Source: Hyperthermus butylicus DSM 5456 (lineage in GTDB: Archaea; Thermoproteota; Thermoprotei_A; Sulfolobales; Pyrodictiaceae). From it: 32,000 bases of DNA. Location of the stretch: contig NC_008818.1 in the NCBI RefSeq assembly GCF_000015145.1, positions 120,001 through 152,000 on the forward strand. The letters run 5' to 3'. The notes under the pieces are model-generated. The model made no database searches and had not been told where the DNA came from. It saw nothing but the letters and a program-made list of their open reading frames with translations. Of this stretch, positions 3,103-19,000 are shown in pieces. The translations under genes and the position numbers were made by a program. Numbering within the stretch: position 1 is the stretch's first letter; each line of letters opens with the position of its first letter.

Positions 3103-3181
3103 TGGTGCGGCGGCCGGGATTTGAACCCGGGATCGCCGGCTTGGCAGGCCGGCGTCCTAGTCCAGGCTAGACGACCGCCGC
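3103..3181 (-). tRNA. tRNA-Gly (anticodon GCC)
   Basis: The reverse complement reads GCGGCGGTCGTCTAGCCTGGACTAGGACGCCGGCCTGCCAAGCCGGCGATCCCGGGTTCAAATCCCGGCCGCCGCACCA. Acceptor stem GCGGCGG/CCGCCGC. Anticodon stem CCGGC/GCCGG with loop CTGCCAA. T-arm CCGGG-TTCAAAT-CCCGG. The 3' CCA is encoded and there is no intron. Confidence 0.93.
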
Positions 3182-3322: not shown

Positions 3323-3793
3323 ATGGCAGCGAGCCGCGGCAAGCTGCGGGGCGTCAGCGAGATAGTCTCAGCAGCACTACTAGTTATCATAGTTGTTAGC
3401 GTGGGCGCGTTCGTAGTCGCCCGTATCCTTGAGACCATCGGCTACGGGATCCATGCTGGCGAGAGACAAGTCCTAAAGACAATGATATCAACCAGGCAAG
3501 CGGTAGCCCCTGCTCTAGCCTATATAGATGCCAACAATACACTACACGTTGTAATAGTGACGGGCGACTACCCGGTAGAGCTAACCGCGCTCTACATAAA
3601 TGGCAGCATTGCAACAAACTGCAATGTAACCAGTGGCAACACGACAGGTCCACTAGAGGGCTTCGTAGTGCCATACTACTCGCTGGCCCATATACAATGC
3701 AGCCTTCCAGCAGATACGAAGCTGGCAGAAGTCACACTCTACCATGGAGGTGGTGGTATTGCGGTGTTCGCCAGGAAGCTCACAGCAGCCTAG
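3323..3793 (+). CDS. Small secreted protein with an archaeal class III (type IV prepilin-like) signal peptide; pilin-like
   Basis: The N-terminus MAASRGKLRG|VSEIVSAALLVIIVVSVGAFVVARIL has a basic residue at -2, G at -1, then about 20 hydrophobic residues. This is the pattern cleaved by PibD/FlaK-type prepilin peptidases. The beta-rich remainder carries 4 N-x-S/T sequons. Confidence 0.75.
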   Translation: MAASRGKLRGVSEIVSAALLVIIVVSVGAFVVARILETIGYGIHAGERQVLKTMISTRQAVAPALAYIDANNTLHVVIVTGDYPVELTALYINGSIATNCNVTSGNTTGPLEGFVVPYYSLAHIQCSLPADTKLAEVTLYHGGGGIAVFARKLTAA

Positions 3794-6605
3794 CGGGACG
3801 AGAGCTGTAGCAACAATCGTCGGAGCCGCAATGCTAGCCCTAGCCCTACTTGCCCTAATAGCATTCTACCTCTATACGCTCCGCCAGCAAACCGAGATAA
3901 CGCAAATAGCTACCGAGGCAGCAGAAGCCAAGCTAACAGCCCCGCTTCTTGCATCAGCCATACACGGCTACTACATGTATGACAGTAGCGGCAACCTATA
4001 CATCTACATACACTCATCGGCGCCACGCACAGTACTAGCAACAAGCCTAGTAATACTCTGGAACGACACGACAACACTACTCGTAGACCGCAACAACGAA
4101 AGCCTCTCAGCACTAGGCATAGTTGCCACAGTCACACACGCCGACGGCACAAAAGAGCAAATAGACAGATTCCCAATACCCCTGGCTCCAGGAGACAGCT
4201 TCACACTAATCCTAATCGGCCGCGCAGCAAACAAGAAACCATCATCAATAGCTCTCAGCATATCAGCAAGCCCCATCGTAGCCATAATACCAATCCGCCC
4301 CTACACGCCGGTAGCAGGAAACATTACAACAGCCCAGCCGCCACAGCCTGCAGCAAAGCTCTACGCCGAACTACAAAGAACAGCCTACAGCGGCACAGTA
4401 ACATGGAGCGGAACAGCTTACGGCACAGCACTAGCAAACACCATAGCCCAACCACAACAAGTACAGCTCCTCCAAGGCTACAATCTAACACCCCTAGATC
4501 CAGCACTCATACAGGAACATGACAACAAGACACTGATAATAGAGCAGTATAAGCCAACACTAACTATAATCAATATTACGCAGGAGACAAGTAACACAAT
4601 ATACTTTCAGGATTTTGATTCGTGCAATGTGATAAGCACACAAACATGGGCTAAAATAGGTGGTGTATGGTCTGACACGCGAGGATTGCACGGGTGCGGT
4701 ATAGGTCAGTCTAAGCCTTCAACTAGTGGTGAAAGCTTCGGAGGAAGCGGAGAATATGTAGCTTATCCGAATCTTGCTACTGGATTCCTACCGAGAAGCG
4801 GGTCGTACTATATTGCCGCCCATGTCAACCTTGCAAGCTCGTTAAATTATCATGAAATAGTCTTGTTCGACGATCCTAAGAGCCAAAGTCGGCTCGTAGC
4901 GGTAGGTGTTTACTTGAGTGATACTAGTGGAATTAACAATGCGTTTCTTGTAGTTGATACATGGACGCCTAGCACTGGGTGGGACAATGTTAACTATTCC
5001 AGGTTTAGCATTACAGGTAATGCATGGCTGACTGTTCTAGCTTTCGTTAATGTATCTGCTAATCTGCTCATGGCATACGTGTATGATGAAAAAGGTCAAA
5101 CGCTTTACGCTAGTGTGCCTGCTAACTTGTCCGCTGGTAATCCGCAATTCGATCTTTCTGCTCTCTCATACGCAGGTGTAGGTACGTATGATGCTAAAGC
5201 AGTGTTTGATGACTTTATAGTATCTCGTGCAAATCCCTTGCAAATTAATTTGAGAGTCGTCGATTTAAATGGAGTCCCTCTCTCTGGGGTTAACGTGACT
5301 ATTTTCGACTCTTCCGGCGTGAAAGTCGCTAGCGGTGTTACTGGGGATGATGGTTTCGTGCAGCCACCGCTTAATATTGGCTGGAAACCTATCCTTCGCA
5401 ATGCCGTTGTAGCTGTCTACTACGATGGAGTGTCTGCTAACATAAGTGTCCCATTGCTTCTTGGCGGCGAGAACTACACCTTGTACATTTCTAGGGTCTA
5501 CACTATCAGAGTTAACGTTTCCACGATCGTCAACACAAGCCTCGACCTGGGCCCTATCCGCATCGAGTATGCCTTCTCGGCTACCGCTCCAGGCAACTAC
5601 ACTATATTTGCTAACTGGAACGGCTCCTGGGTGCTTGTTGCCAGCGGTATCTACACTGGACCAGCCCTAGTTGTAAATAGCACGCCATGGTACACGTATT
5701 CAGGGCAGATAGCTAATAAGACTAATGGTACTGTCCTAATCGGGTTAGTGTTCACCTCATCGTCACCAGTCAACGTCTCCGTGGACGAGCTTAACGCCAG
5801 GTACCAGTTCTGGAACTACTCCTCCTTCAGTGCATTCATTGTTGGTGTCGGAGGGTCAAGCATCATAGATGTCTATGATGTTGCGAGTGGTGTGCTGCAA
5901 TACCGGTACAATATGAGTGCTGGCAGTATCTTCAACGGCTCTACTGTGATAGCGTATGACCCCGCTACTCGTAGACTCTTACTATTCAACTCCAGTGGTC
6001 TCTACTCCTCCCTCCTCAGCCCCCCTGGGAACTTCATCCTGGTCAACAATACTTGTAGGGCTCAGATCAATGCCGCCATGGCAGTGGTTAATACATCCTC
6101 GGCTAGCTATGCTGTGCTCCTCGTGGGTGGCGGGGGTGACGCCTACTGTGTAGTCGATCTCTCCACCGGCAACGTTATCGATTCGGGGAACCTAAGTAGA
6201 AATATTGGCTTCACGGTTTCAACTGACCCCACACTGGTCTACACCGCTTCGGCTGTTTCGAGTGATGGCTCTACAGCCTACTTCCTAGTCTACGATACCA
6301 GTGATGGTGTGCCAGTTATAATAGAGTATAACGCTTCAACTGGTGATTGGAATGTTACAGGTGTAGCTCCAGCATCGAGAGCGGTTGGAATGGCTTACGG
6401 CAATGGGTACCTGTGGGTTCTCTATGAGCGCGGAAGCCTATACAAGATAGACCCGACGACTGGCAGATCGGAGTACGTTGACATATACCTCCCGTTCTAT
6501 CCATGGGGCCCCGGCGACCGCCTAGAGTATATTGATTCGGGCAGATTACTCCTCTTTGTACGAGCGGATGGTACTAGGGAGGTTTGGAGCATACCTACGG
6601 GATAG
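3744..6605 (+). CDS. Large surface protein: prepilin-like signal peptide, lectin-like jelly-roll, CarboxypepD_reg-like Ig module and C-terminal beta-propeller-like repeats
   Basis: N-terminus ...SGTRA|VATIVGAAMLALALLALIAFYLY (R at -2, A at -1, hydrophobic helix). The only in-frame starts are ATG 3744, GTG 3750/3753 and TTG 3759, all inside the previous gene, or ATG 3831, which would cut the helix. Middle region ends AVFDDFIVS (concanavalin/LamG-like). LRVVDLNGVPLSGVNVTIFDSSGVKVASGVTGDDGFV resembles a carboxypeptidase-regulatory-like domain. The C-terminal third has repeated strand-turn blades (GGSSIIDVYDVASG, GGGDAYCVVDLSTGNV, DGSTAYFLVYDTSDG, GYLWVLYERGSLYKIDPTTG). I counted 29 N-x-S/T sequons. 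Confidence 0.75.
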   Translation: MEVVVLRCSPGSSQQPSGTRAVATIVGAAMLALALLALIAFYLYTLRQQTEITQIATEAAEAKLTAPLLASAIHGYYMYDSSGNLYIYIHSSAPRTVLATSLVILWNDTTTLLVDRNNESLSALGIVATVTHADGTKEQIDRFPIPLAPGDSFTLILIGRAANKKPSSIALSISASPIVAIIPIRPYTPVAGNITTAQPPQPAAKLYAELQRTAYSGTVTWSGTAYGTALANTIAQPQQVQLLQGYNLTPLDPALIQEHDNKTLIIEQYKPTLTIINITQETSNTIYFQDFDSCNVISTQTWAKIGGVWSDTRGLHGCGIGQSKPSTSGESFGGSGEYVAYPNLATGFLPRSGSYYIAAHVNLASSLNYHEIVLFDDPKSQSRLVAVGVYLSDTSGINNAFLVVDTWTPSTGWDNVNYSRFSITGNAWLTVLAFVNVSANLLMAYVYDEKGQTLYASVPANLSAGNPQFDLSALSYAGVGTYDAKAVFDDFIVSRANPLQINLRVVDLNGVPLSGVNVTIFDSSGVKVASGVTGDDGFVQPPLNIGWKPILRNAVVAVYYDGVSANISVPLLLGGENYTLYISRVYTIRVNVSTIVNTSLDLGPIRIEYAFSATAPGNYTIFANWNGSWVLVASGIYTGPALVVNSTPWYTYSGQIANKTNGTVLIGLVFTSSSPVNVSVDELNARYQFWNYSSFSAFIVGVGGSSIIDVYDVASGVLQYRYNMSAGSIFNGSTVIAYDPATRRLLLFNSSGLYSSLLSPPGNFILVNNTCRAQINAAMAVVNTSSASYAVLLVGGGGDAYCVVDLSTGNVIDSGNLSRNIGFTVSTDPTLVYTASAVSSDGSTAYFLVYDTSDGVPVIIEYNASTGDWNVTGVAPASRAVGMAYGNGYLWVLYERGSLYKIDPTTGRSEYVDIYLPFYPWGPGDRLEYIDSGRLLLFVRADGTREVWSIPTG

Positions 6606-6829
6606 GCTGGCTCTAGGCTGGTGTGGCCCAGCTATCTGGTAGATTTACCCTAGGAGGCCAGCGTGGCTCTGGATACGTACCGGTTCGAGATGCAGTGTTT
6701 CTGTTAGTTTCTGGGACAAAACATTTGTTTCAAACCAAATGAAACGATGATGATTGTCTTTGTCCCAGCCTTTCCCTTTTGAGAACGGGGCCCCATCCAG
6801 GGCTCCCGGGTAGCTCGGGTGTGAGAGCC

Positions 6830-8713
6830 ATGGCATGGGGCCGTGTAGGCGTAACTGGTCTGGTTGCCCTAAGCTTCATCGTACTCCTAGTAGTTAGTAG
6901 TGTATCGCCGCTGCTGGCTAGCGTTGCAGCAGCTGAGGAGACAAATACAACACAAACTACTGATAACACTACCATAGCTAATGCTAACCTTACTGTGATT
7001 AATACTAGTGTGGCTGGTAACGCTACCGTGGAGGCTGAGGCTGGAGCTGAAACGACGGCAAGTAGTGAGTCTATTGCTGTGAACGTGAGGGTAGGTGTGT
7101 CCGTTTCGGCGCCGGGTACAGAGTTCGGCATGATGCTTACACGTCTAGATAATGTGACGCTGGGCAAGGCGCGTGCACTAGTAATGGTCTACAGTGGCAT
7201 GATGCGCAGCGCCCTGGCGCGCCTGGGCCTGCTAAATGCAACTCCGGAGCAGATAGCAGAGGCCCTGGACGTTCCTCCTGAATACGCGGCGGCGATATAC
7301 AATACTGCGAGGGTGGTTAGCCAGCAGCTAGACAGCATGACTGATGAGCAGGTAATGCAGCTCTTACACGAAGTGATGGCGGCCCATAAGATCCTTGTAG
7401 ATCGTGTGAAGGAGATGGCTGAGAGGGCTGCTGAGAGAATTAAGGAGAAGATACAGCAGCGCGTAATGGAGCACATTGCTAGGACTGTGGAGAAGATTGC
7501 ACGTCAGCTCAACGATACTGAACTGGCTCGGCTGGCACAACAGCTCAGGAACATGAGCAGACTTGGCAACTACACGGCGGCAAACATAACGAGGCTGATG
7601 AAGGATGTTGTGGCTAGGATTGAGGCTCACAATACGTTTATGCTGGCAATGAGAATGGATGATGCGGTGATGAAGCAGCTGGTACGCCTAGCAAACACGG
7701 CTAATGTAACGGATCCAGTGCGGTACATGGTGAAGCTCCAGAAGAGCCTAGCTAAGGCGATCAAGCTCCTGGAGCATGTGCGTGTAAGGCTGCAGGAGAC
7801 GGGTGCAGGCCCTGAAGCGAGAGAGGTGGTGCAGACCGCGTTGGGGAACATGGCTGGTGTCAACGAGACGGTACAGCAGGTAATGGCCATGGCTAAGATA
7901 TATGCTCGGGTCGGTGTGAACAAGACGAGCGTAGCGCTGGAGGCTGTCAAGGCAGCGTTTACGGCTAGGATAGACAGGCTGGCGTCTAGGGCAAACATGC
8001 TGGCAGAAGAGATAGCTATGCTAATGAACCTGGTGGATAACCCCAAGGCGCTGGACCTGCTGCATGACGCGCGGGAAGAGCTAGCAGAAGCCAATAGTAC
8101 TCTTGCAAAGGCTCGCGTGGCACTGGAGCAGGGCAACCTGGTTGGGGCTGTAAAGCTGCTAACTGATGTTGAGAGGAGCCTGGCAAAAGCCGAGATGTAC
8201 ATTGGTAGGGTGCACGGTCACCTCGTAAAGGCAGTGATTGAGCAGAGCCAGCACGGAAGGGAGGTGCTGGGCGAGGAGCAGCACCGGAGAATAATTAGTA
8301 ACGAGACGCTGGCAAAGCTAAAAATAAGGATAGAGGCCAAGATTAGGGAGGCTAAGCGCCTAATAAACCAGAGCATACAGGTCATATACCAGGTAAACGA
8401 TAACGAGGCTCGGAAGGAGACCCTAGACAAGCTTCACGATGCACAGGAGGAGCTACATGAGGCTCTTGCAAGCCTTGAACAAGCCGAAGAAAAGCTAGCA
8501 AAGGGCGACATTGCCGAAGCCCTTGAGCTGTACCGCGAGGCACTCGAGAAAGCCGTGAAAGCAATCCACAAGGTGAAACTATCAACTCAAATAGCTAAGA
8601 TGTACATGAACCTTGTAAAGACGATGGCAAAGATGCACCACGAGGAGAAGCATGAGAAGAAGGCCGAAGAAGCTAAGGAGAAGGCTGAGGAGAAGAGAAG
8701 AGAAGCACCGTGA
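6830..8713 (+). CDS. Secreted, heavily sequon-decorated all-alpha/coiled-coil protein, unknown function
   Basis: The track ORF starts at TTG 6779. ATG 6830 gives MAWGRVGVTGLVALSFIVLLVVSSVSPLLASVAAA|EE, a Sec-type signal. The rest is rich in A/E/K/L/R/Q and helix-forming, with 17 N-x-S/T sequons and repeated helical-hairpin modules. The tail is charged and His/Lys/Glu-rich: HHEEKHEKKAEEAKEKAEEKRREAP. Confidence 0.7.
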   Translation: MAWGRVGVTGLVALSFIVLLVVSSVSPLLASVAAAEETNTTQTTDNTTIANANLTVINTSVAGNATVEAEAGAETTASSESIAVNVRVGVSVSAPGTEFGMMLTRLDNVTLGKARALVMVYSGMMRSALARLGLLNATPEQIAEALDVPPEYAAAIYNTARVVSQQLDSMTDEQVMQLLHEVMAAHKILVDRVKEMAERAAERIKEKIQQRVMEHIARTVEKIARQLNDTELARLAQQLRNMSRLGNYTAANITRLMKDVVARIEAHNTFMLAMRMDDAVMKQLVRLANTANVTDPVRYMVKLQKSLAKAIKLLEHVRVRLQETGAGPEAREVVQTALGNMAGVNETVQQVMAMAKIYARVGVNKTSVALEAVKAAFTARIDRLASRANMLAEEIAMLMNLVDNPKALDLLHDAREELAEANSTLAKARVALEQGNLVGAVKLLTDVERSLAKAEMYIGRVHGHLVKAVIEQSQHGREVLGEEQHRRIISNETLAKLKIRIEAKIREAKRLINQSIQVIYQVNDNEARKETLDKLHDAQEELHEALASLEQAEEKLAKGDIAEALELYREALEKAVKAIHKVKLSTQIAKMYMNLVKTMAKMHHEEKHEKKAEEAKEKAEEKRREAP

Positions 8714-8720
8714 GGAGCAC

Positions 8721-8980
8721 ATGAAGCAGCTAGCAGCTGGCAATGAAATCCTACTAGCAGAGATAAAACGAGGCTGTCACCCTAGTAGACAATGCCACAA
8801 GCCTATTACAACAAGCAAAAAGAAGCTCTAGAAAACGCAGACATGGCAACAGCACACGACCTCGTAGCACAGGCGCGCGAGCTGCTAGACCAGGCTAAAC
8901 AGATACTCGACAACGTGGAGGAGCAGCTACAGCTACCAGGCGCTAGTCACCCAAGAGGAGAACACGGCACAAGACCATGA
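8721..8980 (+). pseudogene. Frame-broken helical-repeat segment: either a disrupted C-terminal continuation of the 6830..8713 gene or a decayed small paralog
   Basis: Three consecutive frames join into one sensible helical sequence. Frame 0 from 8721: MKQLAAGNEILLAEIK. Frame 1 from 8767: NEAVTLVDNATSLLQQAK. Frame 2 to 8980: EALENADMATAHDLVAQARELLDQAKQILDNVEEQLQLPG... The junctions fall at A-runs: ataaaacg at 8763-8770 and gcaaaaag at 8815-8822. Confidence 0.45.
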
Positions 8981-9425
8981 TAATAAGGGGTAAACCAGTA
9001 TATACTACGTCAACGCTACGTGATAACCGTTGTTTTCTGTGCTCCTTCCTCCACGTCTTCTATCGCAAACCCGCCTCAATGATACTTCCTCACCAACTTG
9101 CGAGAAGCTGAAAGGAAGATGAAAAGCAGAGCATGGAGTACTTGCAACTGGAACGACTCTAATGACTTTCTAGTAGGATATGCAGCATTCTAGAAGAACT
9201 CCTCTAGTAGCTGAACGGGTATACCAGCTCTACTAGGGCCTCATGGATTTTCTGCTGTCAGCGTCGACGCCTAGCTTCTCTCTAGGTGCTTGTGGAGTGG
9301 TAGTTCACGCTGTTACCATATGTGAATGTTGGAACATTGGCGGTATTCCATTTATCATGCAGTGATCGTGGTATATGTGTAGTAGGCTAAGCGCTCTTAT
9401 CTTGTTAAGTCTAACCTGACTGGAC

Positions 9426-9614
9426 TTGGGTGGAAATATGCCGAACATTTTTCTCGGTTTTGCCGGCGGGGTTTTATTGGCGGTAATTGTGCTAGCTCAG
9501 CTTCTTGGCATAAGCCTGGGCAGGCACAGGGTTAGAGGGGCTGCTCGGGGTGAGGTACTGTTTCTGCTGCTACTCTTTCTGCTAGGGGTGCTTGTGGCTG
9601 TAATGAAGCGGTAG
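9426..9614 (+). CDS. Possible small two-TM membrane peptide, or a fragment of a decayed membrane protein gene
   Basis: 62-codon ORF (TTG start, ATG at 9438) encoding two hydrophobic stretches, IFLGFAGGVLLAVIVLAQLLGI and VLFLLLLFLLGVLVAV. A further TM-like segment, AAISVAIFAVAVATTYL, lies just downstream in another frame. No other support. Confidence 0.2.
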   Translation: MGGNMPNIFLGFAGGVLLAVIVLAQLLGISLGRHRVRGAARGEVLFLLLLFLLGVLVAVMKR

Positions 9615-10138
9615 GGCTGCTTGAGGCAAGTGCACCCGAAGTCTTTAGGGCTGCTATATCCGTTGCTATCTTCGCTGTAGCAGTGGCAACTACATATTTG
9701 AGATACGTTAAGGCAAGACCTGTGTGAAAGATTAATGTATGTCCTATGACTGTCTTCATTTAAAGTCTGTAGATTCGCCACGATAGCATTGGTAATTGTA
9801 ATCACGTCGATACTTGCCGTCTACAAGCACCATGCACTAAAACTATGTAAAATGCTGCATCGCATATTTCCTGACTGCCGTTGAGGTGTAGCTGGAGCGT
9901 AACGCGACCAATCTTCAAAGCGCCTAGCAGCGCTTGCTTTCCATCAACAGCAAACATAGGATGTGAAGCCTTGCTTCACTGTTTAGCCTACTAAGGTCTA
10001 GCTAAGGCTATCAGGAAACGTATAACCTTCAAGAGTTTCGGTACTAACGTACAATTCTATCGTTTCATTTCATTCAACTGTACAATGGAACGATGAATAC
10101 TGCTAGAGGGAATTCGAGAGGAGAGATGTTAGAGGAGT

Positions 10139-10216
10139 TGGTGCCGCGGCCGGGATTTGAACCCGGGTCACGGGCTTGAAAGGCCCGCATACTTGGCCGG
10201 GCTATACTACCGCGGC
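10139..10216 (-). tRNA. tRNA-Glu (anticodon UUC)
   Basis: The reverse complement reads GCCGCGGTAGTATAGCCCGGCCAAGTATGCGGGCCTTTCAAGCCCGTGACCCGGGTTCAAATCCCGGCCGCGGCACCA. Acceptor stem GCCGCGG/CCGCGGC. Anticodon stem CGGGC/GCCCG with loop CTTTCAA. T-arm CCGGG-TTCAAAT-CCCGG. CCA is encoded. Confidence 0.93.
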
Positions 10217-10280: not shown

Positions 10281-10712
10281 TTACCCGGAGCTGGAGGCTG
10301 GGCCATGTTGACTCTTGATGTATTCTTCGAGGCGTTGCAGGAGTGCTCTTCCGGCTTTCACGGTGTTGTATACTAGTATCGCTGCTGAGGTGGCTGCTGC
10401 TAGTGCTGAGGTGTAGGTGTAGGGTGGCTGTGTAGTGAAGGCTGTTGTTGTATGGGCTAGGAGTAATAGGGTGTAGCCTGCCGAGGCTATCGTGTAGACC
10501 GTATATTCCAGCCTATGCCTCGTGAAGACTATTGCGATGGTGTTGACGCCTATTGAGAGTATGCCTAGCCATGCTGCTATTGTTAGTAGTATGGCGTAGA
10601 GTCCTGCTGCTCCGGGCTCGCCGTGGGCTGGGGCTACGTGGAGGAGTATCGTTAGCAGGGTTATGCCTGTTGCTTCGAGGAGTGCTACGGGGAGCCAGTC
10701 TCCCTTCCTCAT
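10281..10712 (-). CDS. Hypothetical integral membrane protein (about 4 TM helices)
   Basis: 143-aa ORF with an ATG start and four hydrophobic segments: LPVALLEATGITLLTILLHV, LYAILLTIAAWLGILSIGV, VYTIASAGYTLLLLAHT, ALAAATSAAILVY. I recognise no family motif. Confidence 0.6.
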   Translation of the reverse strand: MRKGDWLPVALLEATGITLLTILLHVAPAHGEPGAAGLYAILLTIAAWLGILSIGVNTIAIVFTRHRLEYTVYTIASAGYTLLLLAHTTTAFTTQPPYTYTSALAAATSAAILVYNTVKAGRALLQRLEEYIKSQHGPASSSG

Positions 10713-12856: not shown

Positions 12857-13560
12857 TTGCTCATCGTCTTGGTGTCTGCACGGGTCGGAGAGGAGCGCGG
12901 CTTGGAGGCTTGCCTTGCTAGCAGCCTCCTCTTCTACCTTGGACTGTCAATCCTTATTGACGGTATTCTTGTCGTAGTGGTGTCTATGAGGAGACTATGC
13001 AGAGCTAGCTTTAGGATAGCGGATGGCAAGCTCCTAGTCCACCTGGGGCGCTGTGGCAGGCTCGAGATCCCCCTAGGCTCCATATCGTCTGTGGAGATTG
13101 TAGAAAAGCTGGGCCCCGGGATCAGGCTTGGGGCACAGCTATACCCAAGCTATTCTACTCTGGGCTCTTCTGCTTCCGCGATATTGGCAAGGCGCTAGTG
13201 TATGCTGACAGGCCCGAAAACCTTCTCCTGATAGAGACCCGGGACGGGCAGAGAATACTGTTAGGGTATGATGCTGTGAAGCTGAAGGACCTGCTGGAAC
13301 GGATGGCAGGCAATGGCCCCTCGGGAGAGACGAGAATGATACTATATACTATACAACGGCCGGACCTTCGTATAGCGCTAGCACTATACGTTGCAGCCCT
13401 AGCCGTTGCCGTGGCTGCTGCAGTCCTGCTTCCCGCCAAGATTGTGTTCTTAGGAGAAGCCATGACTAAGGGAGAAGCGCTCGTGATAGCACTGGTTATC
13501 GCTGCAACAGGAATTACAGATATAGCAATATTCTACGCTCTTCTACGCTCTCAGCCATGA
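12857..13560 (+). pseudogene. Membrane-flanked bacterial-type PH domain protein, split into two ORFs (12857..13198 and 13198..13560) by a -1 frame break
   Basis: Frame 2 reads ...FRIADGKLLVHLGRCGRLEIPLGSISSVEIVEKLGPGIRLG. Frame 1 continues from 13132 with GTAIPKLFYSGLFCFRDIGKALVYADRPENLLLIETRDGQRILLGYDAVKLKDLLERM and then two TM helices. The junction is the G4 run at 13130-13133. A fifth G would give one 234-codon ORF. Confidence 0.6.
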
Positions 13561-13949
13561 CGACCCAACACTCCCTCTAGTAGCACTCCCAATCGGCTTA
13601 AGTAGGCTTCTCATGGTACTCTCCGTACTAGTCGCTGGCCTCACCTGTCCCGCGGCATAGCTGACCCAGCTCTAGCACATGGCGCTGTCTGTACACAACG
13701 ATGCCGCAATACATGAAGTCATGGCACTTCTTCTAACCTGAAACCAGGGCATGCTATATGCAATAGCTTCTTGGAGGGCGTAAATAGATCCAAATTATGT
13801 CGAAGTATGCAGCTCTTGGCCTTCCGGTACTTCGCATTCTACACTGGTTTACGGTAGAAGAGGTGGTTAGGCCTCTCTAGCTGGCATAGGTGCTGTGTGG
13901 AGGAAGCCAATACTATCTTACAGTTTTACTCCTCACCCTACTGGTGTGG

Positions 13950-14231
13950 ATGGATGTGCCTGGTAAGGTAAAGACGAACATCATGGTTGACCGGGAGTTG
14001 TGGGAGGCGTTTAAGAGGAAGATTGTATCCGAGAGGGGGCCTCGGTTTCTTAGCAGTGCGGTAGAAGAGGCGTTGGAGGAGGAGCTAGCAGAACTCTTTC
14101 TCCTCAAAGCCCTGGACAGCCTCGACGTTCCGGGTGATGTTGAGGCTCCTCCAAGTGTGGTGCGTGTAAGGCTACGAGTTGCTACAAGGGCGGAGGATGT
14201 GGTGAGGGAGCTGAGGGAGGGAAGGTATTGA
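13950..14231 (+). CDS. vapB: Ribbon-helix-helix type antitoxin (VapB-like)
   Basis: From ATG 13950: MDVPGKVKTNIMVDRELWEAFKRKIVSERGPRFLSSAVEEALEEEL..., the beta-strand then helix-helix pattern of CopG/RHH antitoxins. The stop overlaps the start of the downstream PIN gene (TTGA at 14228-14231). The upstream part of track ORF 13890.. is hydrophobic and probably not translated. Confidence 0.65.
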   Translation: MDVPGKVKTNIMVDRELWEAFKRKIVSERGPRFLSSAVEEALEEELAELFLLKALDSLDVPGDVEAPPSVVRVRLRVATRAEDVVRELREGRY

Positions 14232-14682
14232 GGGTATACCTTGACTCGAGCGCCATAGTGAAGCGGTATATTGAGGAGGATGGAAGCGAAACTGTAGCAG
14301 AGTTCTACGAGAAGGCATTGGATGGCGAGATAACACTTGCATTCTCAATATGGAATGTAGGCGAGGTTCTAGGCGTCCTGGACAAGTATCTGGCTCGTGG
14401 CTGGATATCACGTAGCGAGTACAACACGGCTCTGGCCAGCTTCAGGAGGGAAACCAAGAGGCTTATACGCCTGGGAATACTCAAAGTGGTGCTTGTGAAG
14501 AATCGTCTCCTAGCCTCCTCTTGAGGCTAGTCCTCCGGCACCACATTTACGTAGCGGATGCGCTGCAGATAGTCTCTGCACGGTATGCCCAGGCAGATCT
14601 GCTTGCTACTGGGGATAAGAGGCTAGGCCAGGTTGCCGCAGCGGAGGGTGTTAAAGCGCTTGTACTAGCAGCCGAGAACTAG
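14228..14682 (+). pseudogene. vapC: PIN-domain toxin (VapC) interrupted by a -1 frame break
   Basis: N-terminal ORF 14228..14524: MRVYLDSSAIVKRYIEEDGSE... carries the first PIN acidic residue in the YLDSS motif. The C-terminal half is in frame 1: ...LRLVLRHHIYVADALQIVSARYAQADLLATGDKRLGQVAAAEGVKALVLAAEN, stop at 14680-14682, with the DAlq and TgDkrL PIN motifs. The junction is in cctcctctt near 14513-14521. Confidence 0.7.
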
Positions 14683-17602: not shown

Positions 17603-19000
17603 CTATCTAGCTTTGAGCATTTCTTCCCTCTGGCGTCTAGCACGCTGTATTACAGCTTCTACCTCTTCGGGCAGCTTCTTTATGAGGCCTACGTCTACTA
17701 GTTTGAGTACCTTCTCTCTGCTCGTAGCGATTATCTGTTTGGCCTTCTCGTACTCCTCCTCGTATGTAGTCTTGAGCCTTGCTACTCCCTCCTCCACAGC
17801 CCTTACTGCGGTTGCGGCGGCTACGCGTGGATATACCTCCCACTCTTCCATCGATGGTATGATGTAGTCTTCTCGTAGCCCCTTCTCCTCGGCGAATCTT
17901 GCCAGCTCCTCGGCAGCAGCTATAGCCATGGTGTCGGTGATTGTCCTGGCGCGTACGTCCAGTACGCCACGGAATATTGAGGGGAATGCAAGGCTATTGT
18001 TTACCTGGTTGGGGAAGTCGCTGCGCCCAGTCGCTACGACCCTTGCACCAGCCTCCTTAGCCTCCCATGGCCATATCTCTGGCACAGGGTTAGCCTCGGC
18101 GAAGACTATGGGGTCCTTGTCCATTAGCTTTATCCACTCGGGCTTTATCACGCCTGGCCCTGGCTTGGAAGCCGCTACAACAGCTTCTGCACCTTCGAGG
18201 GCCTCCTTTATGCCGCCGCCTCGTAGCTGGTTCCAGCCGCCGTCGGTCTCGACTGCTATCTGGTACTTCCACGGGTTCTTCTCCTTCAGCTTCTCGATGT
18301 CCTCTCTCTGGCTGTGCAGTACACCCTTAGAGTCTACCACGACCATATTCTTGGGATCTACGCCATAGGCCTTCAACAGTCTGTAAAGTGCAGTGTTGGC
18401 GGCACCGGCACCTATGAGTGCTATCCTCATCTTGCGCAGGTCTCTGCCAGTGAGCTTAGCGGCGTTTATGAGGCCTGCAAGGGTTACGGTTGCGGTACCC
18501 TGCTGGTCGTCATGCCATATGGGTATGTTTAGCCGTTTCCGAGCCTCGTCAAGGAGGTAGAAGCACTTGGGGCTCTCGATATCCTCGAGGTTTATGCCGC
18601 CAAAGCTCGGCTCTATTAACACGAGTAGCTCGAGGAACTTCTCCCGATCCCTCGCCCTGTGAACTAGGGGCACGGCATCAACGCCGCCCAGGGCTTTGAA
18701 GAGAAGGGCCTTACCCTCCATTACCGGGAGGGCGCCTTCGGGCCCAATAGCGCCTAGGCCTAGAACCCTAGTACCGTCGCTTACAACGGCGACGGTGTTC
18801 CAACGCCAGGTATTGTGGAATGTTGCGTCTGGATCCTCGGCGTCCTCCTTGGCGGGGCCTGCTACGCCAGGGGTGTACCAGATAGCGAAGTCGTCTTGGC
18901 GAAATGCAGGAACCTTAGGTATAACCTCTATCTTGCCCTCGTAGAGCCGGTGTAGTTTCTTGGAGATACTATACCAGTCTATCCTCTCTTTTTCGGACAT
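17603..19000 (-). CDS. NAD(P)-dependent malic enzyme (oxaloacetate-decarboxylating malate dehydrogenase)
   Basis: ATG start. [70 protein letters not shown] and the Rossmann motif [12 protein letters not shown] are the canonical small malic-enzyme blocks. Confidence 0.9.

Follow-up and report, generated by a model that had tools for sequence, protein, structure and literature searches.

A 32,000-nucleotide (nt) stretch of the Hyperthermus butylicus DSM 5456 genome (contig NC_008818.1, positions 120,001 to 152,000; hereafter called the window, with coordinates counted from its first letter) contains two overlapping genes, Hbut_0140 and Hbut_0141, which we refer to as open reading frame 1 (ORF1) and ORF2, respectively. 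Both proteins have class III signal motifs that are conserved in their families, both are related to archaeal pilins in sequence and in modelled fold, and the second one continues from its pilin-like N-terminus into a series of additional modules. The pairing of the two genes is conserved in relatives, and the genome encodes an ATPase of the type that assembles type IV pili. Our favoured reading, to which we assign a probability of roughly 60%, is that Hbut_0140 and Hbut_0141 are a translationally coupled two-gene type IV pilus cassette that codes for a small, probably minor, pilin and for a modular pilin adhesin at the tip of the filament. A minor pilin together with a pilin-anchored adhesin had already been suggested in a first-pass annotation made from the letters of the window, and this suggestion is supported by the pilin homology of ORF1 and of the N-terminal module of ORF2.

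Both genes are coded on the forward strand and are located where the first-pass annotation had placed them, with ORF1 at 3323-3793 (156 amino acids [aa]; ABM80013, with the locus tag obtained by cluster look-up) and ORF2 at 3744-6605 as a 953-aa frame whose product matches a Hyperthermus butylicus hypothetical protein at 100% identity. A start-codon scan bears out the reason that was given for the overlap, as all usable starts of ORF2 (ATG 3744, GTG 3750, GTG 3753 and TTG 3759) are within ORF1 and the next in-frame Met falls within the hydrophobic helix. The overlap is 50 nt when counted from the upstream ATG 3744 and 35 nt when counted from TTG 3759. As read from the sequence, TTG 3759 is most likely the start of ORF2 because it is preceded by a Shine-Dalgarno-like GGAGGTG (3746-3752, forward strand) that ends 6 nt before it within the 3' end of ORF1, and because the resulting 35-nt overlap equals that of the related loci L001 and L002. 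The placement of GGAGGTG also supports translational coupling of Hbut_0140 and Hbut_0141. From this start ORF2 (3759-6605) codes for a predicted modular pilin-like surface glycoprotein of 948 aa, which is also the RefSeq reannotation of Hbut_0141 (WP_153801337). The original GenBank model of Hbut_0141 (ABM80014, 924 aa) begins at the helix-internal Met, which removes the class III signal, and signal-based censuses that used this old annotation would therefore miss the protein. Residues of ORF2 are numbered below according to the 953-aa frame.

The N-terminus of ORF1 reads KLRG↓VSEIVSAALLVIIVVSVGAFVV, where the arrow marks the predicted cleavage site. Specifically, the predicted leader is M1-G10 (MAASRGKLRG; 3323-3352, forward strand), cleavage is expected after G10 and the predicted mature N-terminus is V11 (VSEIVSAALL...). 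The N-terminus of ORF2 reads GTRA↓VATIVGAAMLALALLALIAF, with a predicted leader (MRCSPGSSQQPSGTRA) at 3759-3806 on the forward strand, cleavage expected after A21 and a predicted mature N-terminus at residue 22. The first-pass annotation had quoted both N-termini exactly when it assigned class III signals to them, and this assignment is upheld by conservation of the motif in both families and by its fit to characterised sites. Thus, both proteins have a short basic leader ending in [KR]-[G/A/S] and a hydrophobic stretch of ~20 residues at the extreme N-terminus. A profile search with ORF1 returned 25 relatives, and the motif R9-G10↓V11-S12-E13 is conserved in this family. Across 22 aligned sequences, two Cys and the N-terminal R-[G/A/S]↓[V/I/L]-S-E-L-V-S-A-A-L-L are invariant or nearly so, with S12, E13, S16, A17, C100 and C126 of ORF1 being strictly invariant. 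A full-library profile search with ORF2 returned 120 representatives (one per 50%-identity cluster) at E<=1e-3, many of which are 880-1000 aa in length. R20 and V22 of ORF2 are invariant in the close family, and 63 of the 120 representatives contain [KR][GAST]↓[VIL][SGA][TSG][VI][VI] together with a 22-residue stretch that has at least 20 hydrophobic or small residues; these 63 are the members selected by this motif-plus-hydrophobic-stretch test, and many of the other 57 are fragments that begin inside the protein. The predicted RG↓VS site of ORF1 agrees with the characterised archaeal processing sites KA↓IS in UpsA, RA↓LS in AapA/B and RA↓VS in PilA (PMC4371748). The peptidase family FlaK/PulO (arCOG02298) is near-universal among the archaeal genomes covered by Table S1 of PMC4858521.

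The AlphaFold model of ORF1 has a mean predicted local distance difference test score (pLDDT) of 91.5 and consists of a 53-residue helix (residues 6-58) followed by a beta-sandwich (61-152), which is the lollipop fold, an N-terminal helix of ~50 residues with a beta-sandwich head, exhibited by solved archaeal pilins. A profile search of the PDB with the ORF1 family gave a single significant match, the full-length alignment to chain A of 8FK7 (E 3.9e-4), which is a flagellar-like type IV pilin of Pyrobaculum calidifontis (PMC10334743). Foldseek searches of the PDB with the ORF1 model returned 6NAV, 6W8X and 8TIB, all from adhesive pili of Sulfolobus islandicus or S. solfataricus, as the top three matches with end-to-end alignment. 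These four pilins, the best sequence and fold matches of ORF1, are similar to it in size (131-144 aa) and in their combination of a long N-terminal helix with a beta-sandwich. However, there are several differences. Identity is only ~16-21%, the four proteins are major filament subunits whereas ORF1 is coupled to a giant partner, and ORF1 has a distinctive invariant VSELVSAALL N-terminus as well as two invariant cysteines. NCBIfam models of pilin-like proteins from Sulfolobales gave consistent, although sub-threshold, matches among the 22 aligned members of the ORF1 family, specifically BasA in 15 (best E 7.7e-6), UpsB in eight and UpsA in six. ORF1 also has four N-x-S/T glycosylation sequons. 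Given the 8FK7 profile match, the AlphaFold fold, the top Foldseek matches and the conserved RG↓VS motif, sequence and model together indicate that ORF1 is a divergent archaeal type IV pilin, and it is probably a minor one.

The first ~190 residues of ORF2 are, by the same kinds of prediction, a pilin-like module that is homologous to ORF1. This module (residues 22-190; 3807-4313, forward strand) is modelled by AlphaFold as an N-terminal helix (20-63) and a beta-sandwich (73-186), again a lollipop, with pLDDT of ~76-87 over residues 71-170. Alignment of 37 ORF2 N-terminal regions with the ORF1 family by hhalign gave a probability of 93.8% (E 1.7e-7), in a match that extends from the signal through the helix to the first strands. 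When the profile of this N-module was searched against the PDB, the best match was again 8FK7 (E 0.0053), followed by four archaellins. Individual N-modules from the family match ArlF, arch_flag_Nterm, UpsA and BasB, with ArlF found for four of 21. The module also occurs by itself. In locus L009, from a metagenome-assembled genome (MAG) of the Pyrodictiaceae, the gene that follows the small pilin codes for the N-module alone (177 aa) and ends where the ORF2 module ends, after which there is a tRNA and no trace of the remaining ORF2 gene. Additional stand-alone N-modules of 160-220 aa were present in the ORF2 profile search.

The rest of ORF2, also given here on the forward strand, is built from non-pilin parts. 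The pilin-like module leads into a low-confidence linker (residues ~191-283; 4314-4592) that has pLDDT <50 for residues 189-262 and no family match, and then into a beta-rich domain (residues ~284-494; 4593-5225) with strands over 337-494 at pLDDT of 55-78. The first-pass annotation had described this stretch as a jelly-roll lectin-like region. It is indeed beta-rich and ends in AVFDDFIVS (486-494), but the lectin label stays unverified as there is no Pfam match, and ten stand-alone relatives of this middle domain gave no lectin families either, with no Pfam match for nine of them and only weak Ig-like matches for the tenth. The next part, assigned from PF13620 and AlphaFold strands, comprises an immunoglobulin-like (Ig-like) CarboxypepD_reg-type domain (~497-575) and a second beta-sandwich (~577-690), which together span 5232-5813. 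The CarboxypepD_reg-type module had been anticipated from the sequence and a match to PF13620 is present at residues 501-538, but it is a weak one (E 1.1e-5, 22.8-26.2 bits) that falls below the 32.3-bit cut-off. At the C-terminus there is a beta-propeller (residues ~697-953; 5832-6602), with pLDDT of 75-91 for residues 735-953, so that the repeated blade-like segments noticed earlier are confirmed by both AlphaFold and Foldseek. The top 50 Foldseek matches for the ORF2 model are generic WD40, YWTD and BamB propellers; the whole-model search is dominated by them and is therefore silent on the N-module and the middle domain. Searches with the propeller segment gave weak PQQ_2 and DUF4394 matches (~2e-3) and no match to the PilY1 family PF05567 at E<=10. 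Finally, a full-length ORF2 sequence profile had no match in the PDB, and no Pfam or NCBIfam model exceeded its threshold on either protein or on segments of ORF2.

Comparison of 42 diverse members of the ORF2 family revealed that the N-module and the C-terminal propeller are kept while the middle varies. The most conserved motif of the family is in the propeller (PFYPWGPGDRLEY...FVRADGTREVW), where the 42 members share P-x-Y-P-x-G-P-G-D-R-L...V-R-x-D-G-T with P920, G924 and R926 nearly invariant. The middle modules include DUF2341 in 18 of the members (best E 2.2e-30), NIDO in eight, bMG3 in five and Kelch in two, and the DUF2341, NIDO and bMG3 modules occupy the position of the H. butylicus beta-rich domain. 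This is well illustrated by the L005 protein, which is conserved with ORF2 at both ends and is unrelated to it in the middle, where L005 has its DUF2341 region; ORF2 itself has no match to DUF2341 (PF10102). ORF2 consequently exhibits the layout of a modular pilin, that is a pilin module, a linker and non-pilin modules that are evolutionarily separable. The count of 29 N-x-S/T sequons in ORF2 reported by the first-pass annotation was reproduced and compares with 9.7 +/- 2.8 in shuffled sequences, ~7 standard deviations above, which indicates that the ORF2 product is extracellular. The corresponding density is 30 sequons per 1000 residues, whereas the cytoplasmic proteins encoded in the window have 0-4 per 1000.

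We observed the small-plus-large pair in L001, L002/L003, L004, L005, L006/L007, L008 and L010, with overlaps of 23-41 nt or gaps of <30 nt. A distant locus, L014, also has the pair; its large protein shares just 27% identity with ORF2 when the family is aligned, and its small partner has the leader ERG↓VSPIF and matches the ORF1 family at 99.6%. The pair therefore recurs at every examined related locus that has an intact second gene, and L009 retains only the 177-aa pilin module. A genome scan with the small-family motif found Pyrodictiaceae only, and the named members of the wider large family are from Desulfurococcales and Thermoproteota MAGs. The flanks of the pair are conserved as well. 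In H. butylicus its upstream neighbour is tRNA-Gly(GCC) (3103-3181, reverse strand) and its slot is bounded downstream by tRNA-Glu(UUC) (10139-10216, reverse strand), both called by ARAGORN and Rfam. A tRNA-Gly immediately precedes the small gene in L001, L002, L004, L005 and L009. A tRNA-Glu directly follows the large gene in L004 and L005 or the 177-aa module gene in L009, and in L006 and L010 it is found before the pair.

Most Pyrodictiaceae loci thus have a slot bounded by these two tRNAs, and the content of this slot varies. In L004 and L005 it holds only the pair, in L009 the small pilin and the module-only gene, and in H. butylicus the pair together with a 644-aa gene and 1.4 kb that lack long ORFs. 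The 3' ends of the two tRNAs share 28 of 29 nt (3103-3131 and 10139-10167). A genomic island, for which a low GC content (0.49 versus 0.54) and this 29-nt repeat could be cited, was considered and rejected. The repeat is the common 3' part of two intact tRNAs, and the same tRNAs flank the cassette in relatives, which indicates old synteny as opposed to a recent integration.

With regard to assembly machinery, Pfam scans of 20 other ORFs revealed no T2SSE ATPase, T2SSF platform or A24 peptidase in the 32 kb, and tblastn of the window with the ATPase, platform and KaiC proteins of a relative also gave no match. These 20 ORFs gave housekeeping matches only, which include NrdD, a CBS protein, NTP_transf_3 and CDP-OH_P_transf domains in two genes, ATP-grasp, succinate dehydrogenase, fumarase, FeoB and an M32 peptidase, and no further pilin-like N-termini were found among the small ORFs at 12857-14231. 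The earlier statement that no ATPase, platform or prepilin peptidase is nearby consequently holds for the H. butylicus window, but it does not extend to the family since L008 and L010 have machinery 4-9 kb from the pair. Specifically, L008 has a PilA-type pilin (MRTLRAVSPVV...), a T2SSE ATPase, two T2SSF proteins and a KaiC-like ATPase at 4-9 kb, and L010 has a PilA-type pilin and the start of the same ATPase at 8.5-9.7 kb, where the examined stretch ends inside the ATPase gene. In both loci, the genes between the pair and the machinery are the same housekeeping genes that follow the pair in H. butylicus. The H. butylicus genome does encode an orthologous T2SSE ATPase (P0170, 67% identity), and this species is listed with three clade-4 ATPases and no archaellum (PMC4858521 Table S3). 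Thus, the assembly ATPase is present in the genome and the cassette is usually orphaned from the machinery.

A PilA-type pilin gene (MRTLRAVSPVVATALLVLIAV...) is directly beside the T2SSE ATPase gene in L008 (6091-6519, reverse strand), L010 (18987-19427, forward strand) and the Pyrodictium occultum locus L013 (9199-9677). In P. occultum this gene is called as two short ORFs of 89 and 79 aa, which may reflect a frameshift or a miscall. The PilA-type protein is likely the major pilin of the system that would carry the cassette products.

One of the closest parallels is provided by the modular pilins of Streptococcus sanguinis. Bacterial modular pilins have been modelled at the filament tip for steric reasons, with PilB located only at the tip and PilC carrying a lectin module (PMC8179133), and the small minor pilin PilA is reported to interact with PilC in a glycan-binding complex (PMC9934059). 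Hbut_0140 and Hbut_0141 resemble this PilA-PilC/PilB system in that a small pilin module has bulky effector modules at its C-terminus, in that the family contains many alternative modules, in that the large subunit is modelled at the tip in S. sanguinis and in that a small non-modular protein, PilA, partners the large PilC. They differ in that their signals are archaeal class III (R-G/A↓V-S/A-T-I-V) and not the bacterial G↓FxxxE N-methylation motif (IPR012902, G↓F/M-x-x-x-E), as ORF2 has no Glu at +5 and ORF1 has its Glu at +3. Hbut_0141 also has ~750 residues in at least four modules that end in a propeller, is heavily supplied with N-glycosylation sites and belongs to a cassette that is away from assembly genes. 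Since the N-termini are of the archaeal type, we regard the pair as an analogue, not a member, of the bacterial modular pilins. A second parallel is with PilY1/PilC of bacterial type IVa pili and with the large DUF2341 proteins that were proposed as PilY1-like tip adhesins in archaeal type IV pilus loci (Makarova et al. 2016, PMC4858521). All share a conserved C-terminal propeller, variable upstream modules and a proposed tip role. However, PilY1 is a non-pilin protein that relies on docking to minor pilins, ORF2 has a pilin module built into it, and the ORF2 propeller matches only generic propellers and not PF05567 / IPR008707. ORF2 also lacks the DUF2341 of the archaeal adhesins (arCOG03508-like, PMC4858521), although its family overlaps this class given that 18 of 42 relatives carry the domain. 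A third parallel, the Sulfolobus bindosome (BasABC), likewise pairs small pilin-like proteins with large surface proteins that bear class III signals but fall outside the classical filament subunits, and the small family has weak similarity to BasA. It differs in that ORF2 has no ATP-binding cassette (ABC) substrate-binding fold, that no basEF genes are beside the pair and that the BasA match reaches 16.7 bits versus a cut-off of 230.

According to our favoured reading, both preproteins would be inserted into the membrane, where the prepilin peptidase of the genome (PibD/FlaK type) would cut off the short basic leaders after R-G and R-A, respectively. The hydrophobic N-terminal helix of ~20 residues would then hold each protein in the membrane until the type IV pilus ATPase and platform encoded elsewhere extract both into a filament. 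In the assembled state, ~750 residues of bulky, presumably heavily N-glycosylated domains (the beta domain, the Ig-like domains and the beta-propeller) would hang on the pilin module of Hbut_0141. By the steric reasoning applied to bacterial modular pilins, a subunit this bulky would be accommodated at the tip only. Hbut_0140 would be the partner of Hbut_0141 in a tip or priming complex, and the translational coupling of the two genes fits a stoichiometric complex of their products. The outer modules of Hbut_0141 may in turn bind a surface or glycan ligand, which would make the complex adhesive.

The components of this system are of known kinds, namely proteins with class III signals, archaeal pilins and modular pilins. 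Hbut_0141 combines a pilin module, a beta domain, an Ig-like region and a propeller in one protein that has a dedicated small pilin partner, with the archaeal examples known from sequence. Most of what is known about archaeal type IV pili concerns the major subunits, and predictions on the content of their tips and on surface recognition have so far been based on gene neighbourhoods. For hyperthermophilic Thermoproteota, the cassette represents a concrete and conserved tip candidate that consists of a small partner and a pilin onto which surface modules are grafted. Genes of this kind can be orphaned from the assembly locus and are then missed by neighbourhood-based censuses. In addition, the ~120 uncharacterised representative proteins form a family for which neither Pfam nor NCBIfam has a model. 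Should the role as tip adhesin hold, the modular-pilin principle would extend from bacteria to archaea.

Several observations weigh against this reading. The two archaeal pilin N-terminal models named in the first-pass annotation did not reach their thresholds on the two proteins, as TIGR02537 scored 13 bits on ORF1 (cut-off 20) and there was otherwise no match on either protein, neither of PF07790 (Pilin_N) to ORF1 nor of either model to ORF2. Both are short, compositionally biased models, and some members of the ORF2 family do reach E values of 8.5e-4 (TIGR02537) and 0.068 (PF07790). The homologue P0004 has a Thr at -1, which is unusual for prepilin peptidase substrates. The full-length AlphaFold model of ORF2 is of moderate quality (pLDDT 62.6, with four sequences in the alignment), and the E values of the PDB and Foldseek matches are modest (1e-4 to 5e-3) with TM-scores of 0.4-0.48. 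A binding domain with a known ligand was identified by Pfam neither in ORF2 nor in the stand-alone relatives of the middle domain. Finally, the cassette does not adjoin assembly genes in H. butylicus, the type IV pilus machinery of P. occultum (L013) has no such pair within 10 kb, and L014 has no assembly genes near its pair, such that genomic linkage of the cassette to a particular pilus is weak.

The main alternative is that the N-termini only anchor Hbut_0141, with Hbut_0140 as its helper, in a membrane- or pseudopilus-anchored surface protein that resembles the bindosome or ArlF/ArlG. This anchored form could be a very short pseudopilus or a monotopic membrane protein. Its propeller and beta domains would then act at the cell surface and not on a long pilus, perhaps by capturing substrates or by contacting the surface layer (S-layer). 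We consider this possible, if somewhat unlikely. The ArlF matches of the N-modules recall membrane-anchored pilin-like proteins, ArlF being the stator of the archaellum, and FlaG is present at rank 32 among the Foldseek matches of ORF1. H. butylicus, however, has no archaellum system that would need ArlF/ArlG (PMC4858521 Table S3), and the best structure and sequence matches are filament-forming pilins and not stator proteins. In a similar manner, the sub-threshold matches that link the small family with the Sulfolobus bindosome protein BasA would fit an anchored complex, but their scores are far below the BasA cut-off and the large protein has no substrate-binding-protein fold. The orphan position of the cassette amid housekeeping genes in the window, in L014 and in other loci would also be in line with anchoring, as would the propeller being the most conserved part of ORF2, which is expected if it contacts a constant partner such as the S-layer.

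A different assignment of roles appears improbable to us, namely that a separate thin filament has Hbut_0140 as its major subunit, is assembled by one of the three type IV pilus ATPases and is capped by Hbut_0141, such that the cassette would not be an accessory of the PilA-type pilus. The full-length alignment of the ORF1 family with the major pilin 8FK7, which has the same size and fold, and the inheritance of the cassette as a unit without other pilins are congruent with a self-contained fibre, and it has been argued that ATPase/TadC pairs can serve different stand-alone pilin sets (PMC4858521). Nevertheless, L008 and L010 have a separate canonical PilA-type pilin beside the ATPase that fits the major-subunit role, and minor pilins are the more typical partners for a giant tip protein in a 1:1 translational coupling. 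There is very little room for the remaining explanation, that ORF2 is a conventional Sec-secreted S-layer protein, protease or other enzyme that resembles a class III protein by chance. ORF2 does code for a large, glycosylated, beta-rich protein with a propeller, as do many envelope proteins, and no pilin model scores above threshold. Yet the motif is kept in every motif-selected member of the large family, the N-terminus is homologous to pilins, and the N-module exists alone as a small gene. Furthermore, there was no sign in ORF2 of a Sec-type signal or of S-layer, protease or enzyme families, and the neighbouring 644-aa protein exhibits what a Sec signal of this genome looks like, from which the ORF2 N-terminus differs. 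An S-layer or protease identity of ORF2, which the first-pass annotation had named as one of the outcomes that would overturn its proposal, was therefore rejected for want of a supporting match.

A further and rather speculative elaboration, which we hold to be doubtful, is that the constant pilin module and propeller flank an exchangeable effector module, with the tRNA-bounded slot functioning as a cassette-exchange system for adhesin specificity in which Pyrodictiaceae would replace or lose the effector part. The pair would then represent an archaeal counterpart, in two polypeptides, of minor pilins plus PilY1, with the pilus machinery encoded elsewhere. The slot states that this idea invokes are the module-only gene of L009, the DUF2341 module of L005 and the different beta domain of H. 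butylicus.

Several other features of the window were also observed. The gene that follows ORF2 in the slot (6779-8713, forward strand) has a probable start at ATG 6830 and codes for a 644-aa secreted protein (~627 aa from ATG 6830). This protein begins with a Sec-type signal (MAWGRVGVTGLVALSFIVLLVVSSVSPLLASVAAA), contains 17 N-glycosylation sequons and has a long body that is helical and coiled-coil-like and ends in a Lys/Glu-rich tail; it has no family match above threshold. This gene is absent at that position in L002/L003, L006/L007 and L008, the relatives in which the downstream genes are seen, which indicates an insertion specific to H. butylicus that separates the cassette from tRNA-Glu. 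Its product could be an envelope stalk or an S-layer-associated protein. The ~1.4 kb that come next (8714-10138) have no ORF >102 aa, a low GC content (0.47) and no Rfam match at the gathering threshold, and could represent the remains of decayed genes or else an RNA that is so far uncharacterised. A 143-aa multi-pass membrane protein with no family match is encoded at 10281-10712 (reverse strand), in the interval that separates tRNA-Glu from the CBS-domain gene. A 465-aa ORF at 17603-19000 has the size and position of the malic-enzyme gene of L003. Finally, the region 13890-14682 has a layout like that of a toxin-antitoxin pair, with a 113-aa ORF (13890-14231) that has no Pfam match followed by a candidate toxin ORF (MRVYLDSSAIVKRY...). 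The latter is apparently split into 14228-14524 and 14521-14682, which may be a frameshifted toxin gene, and its predicted product may be PIN-like.

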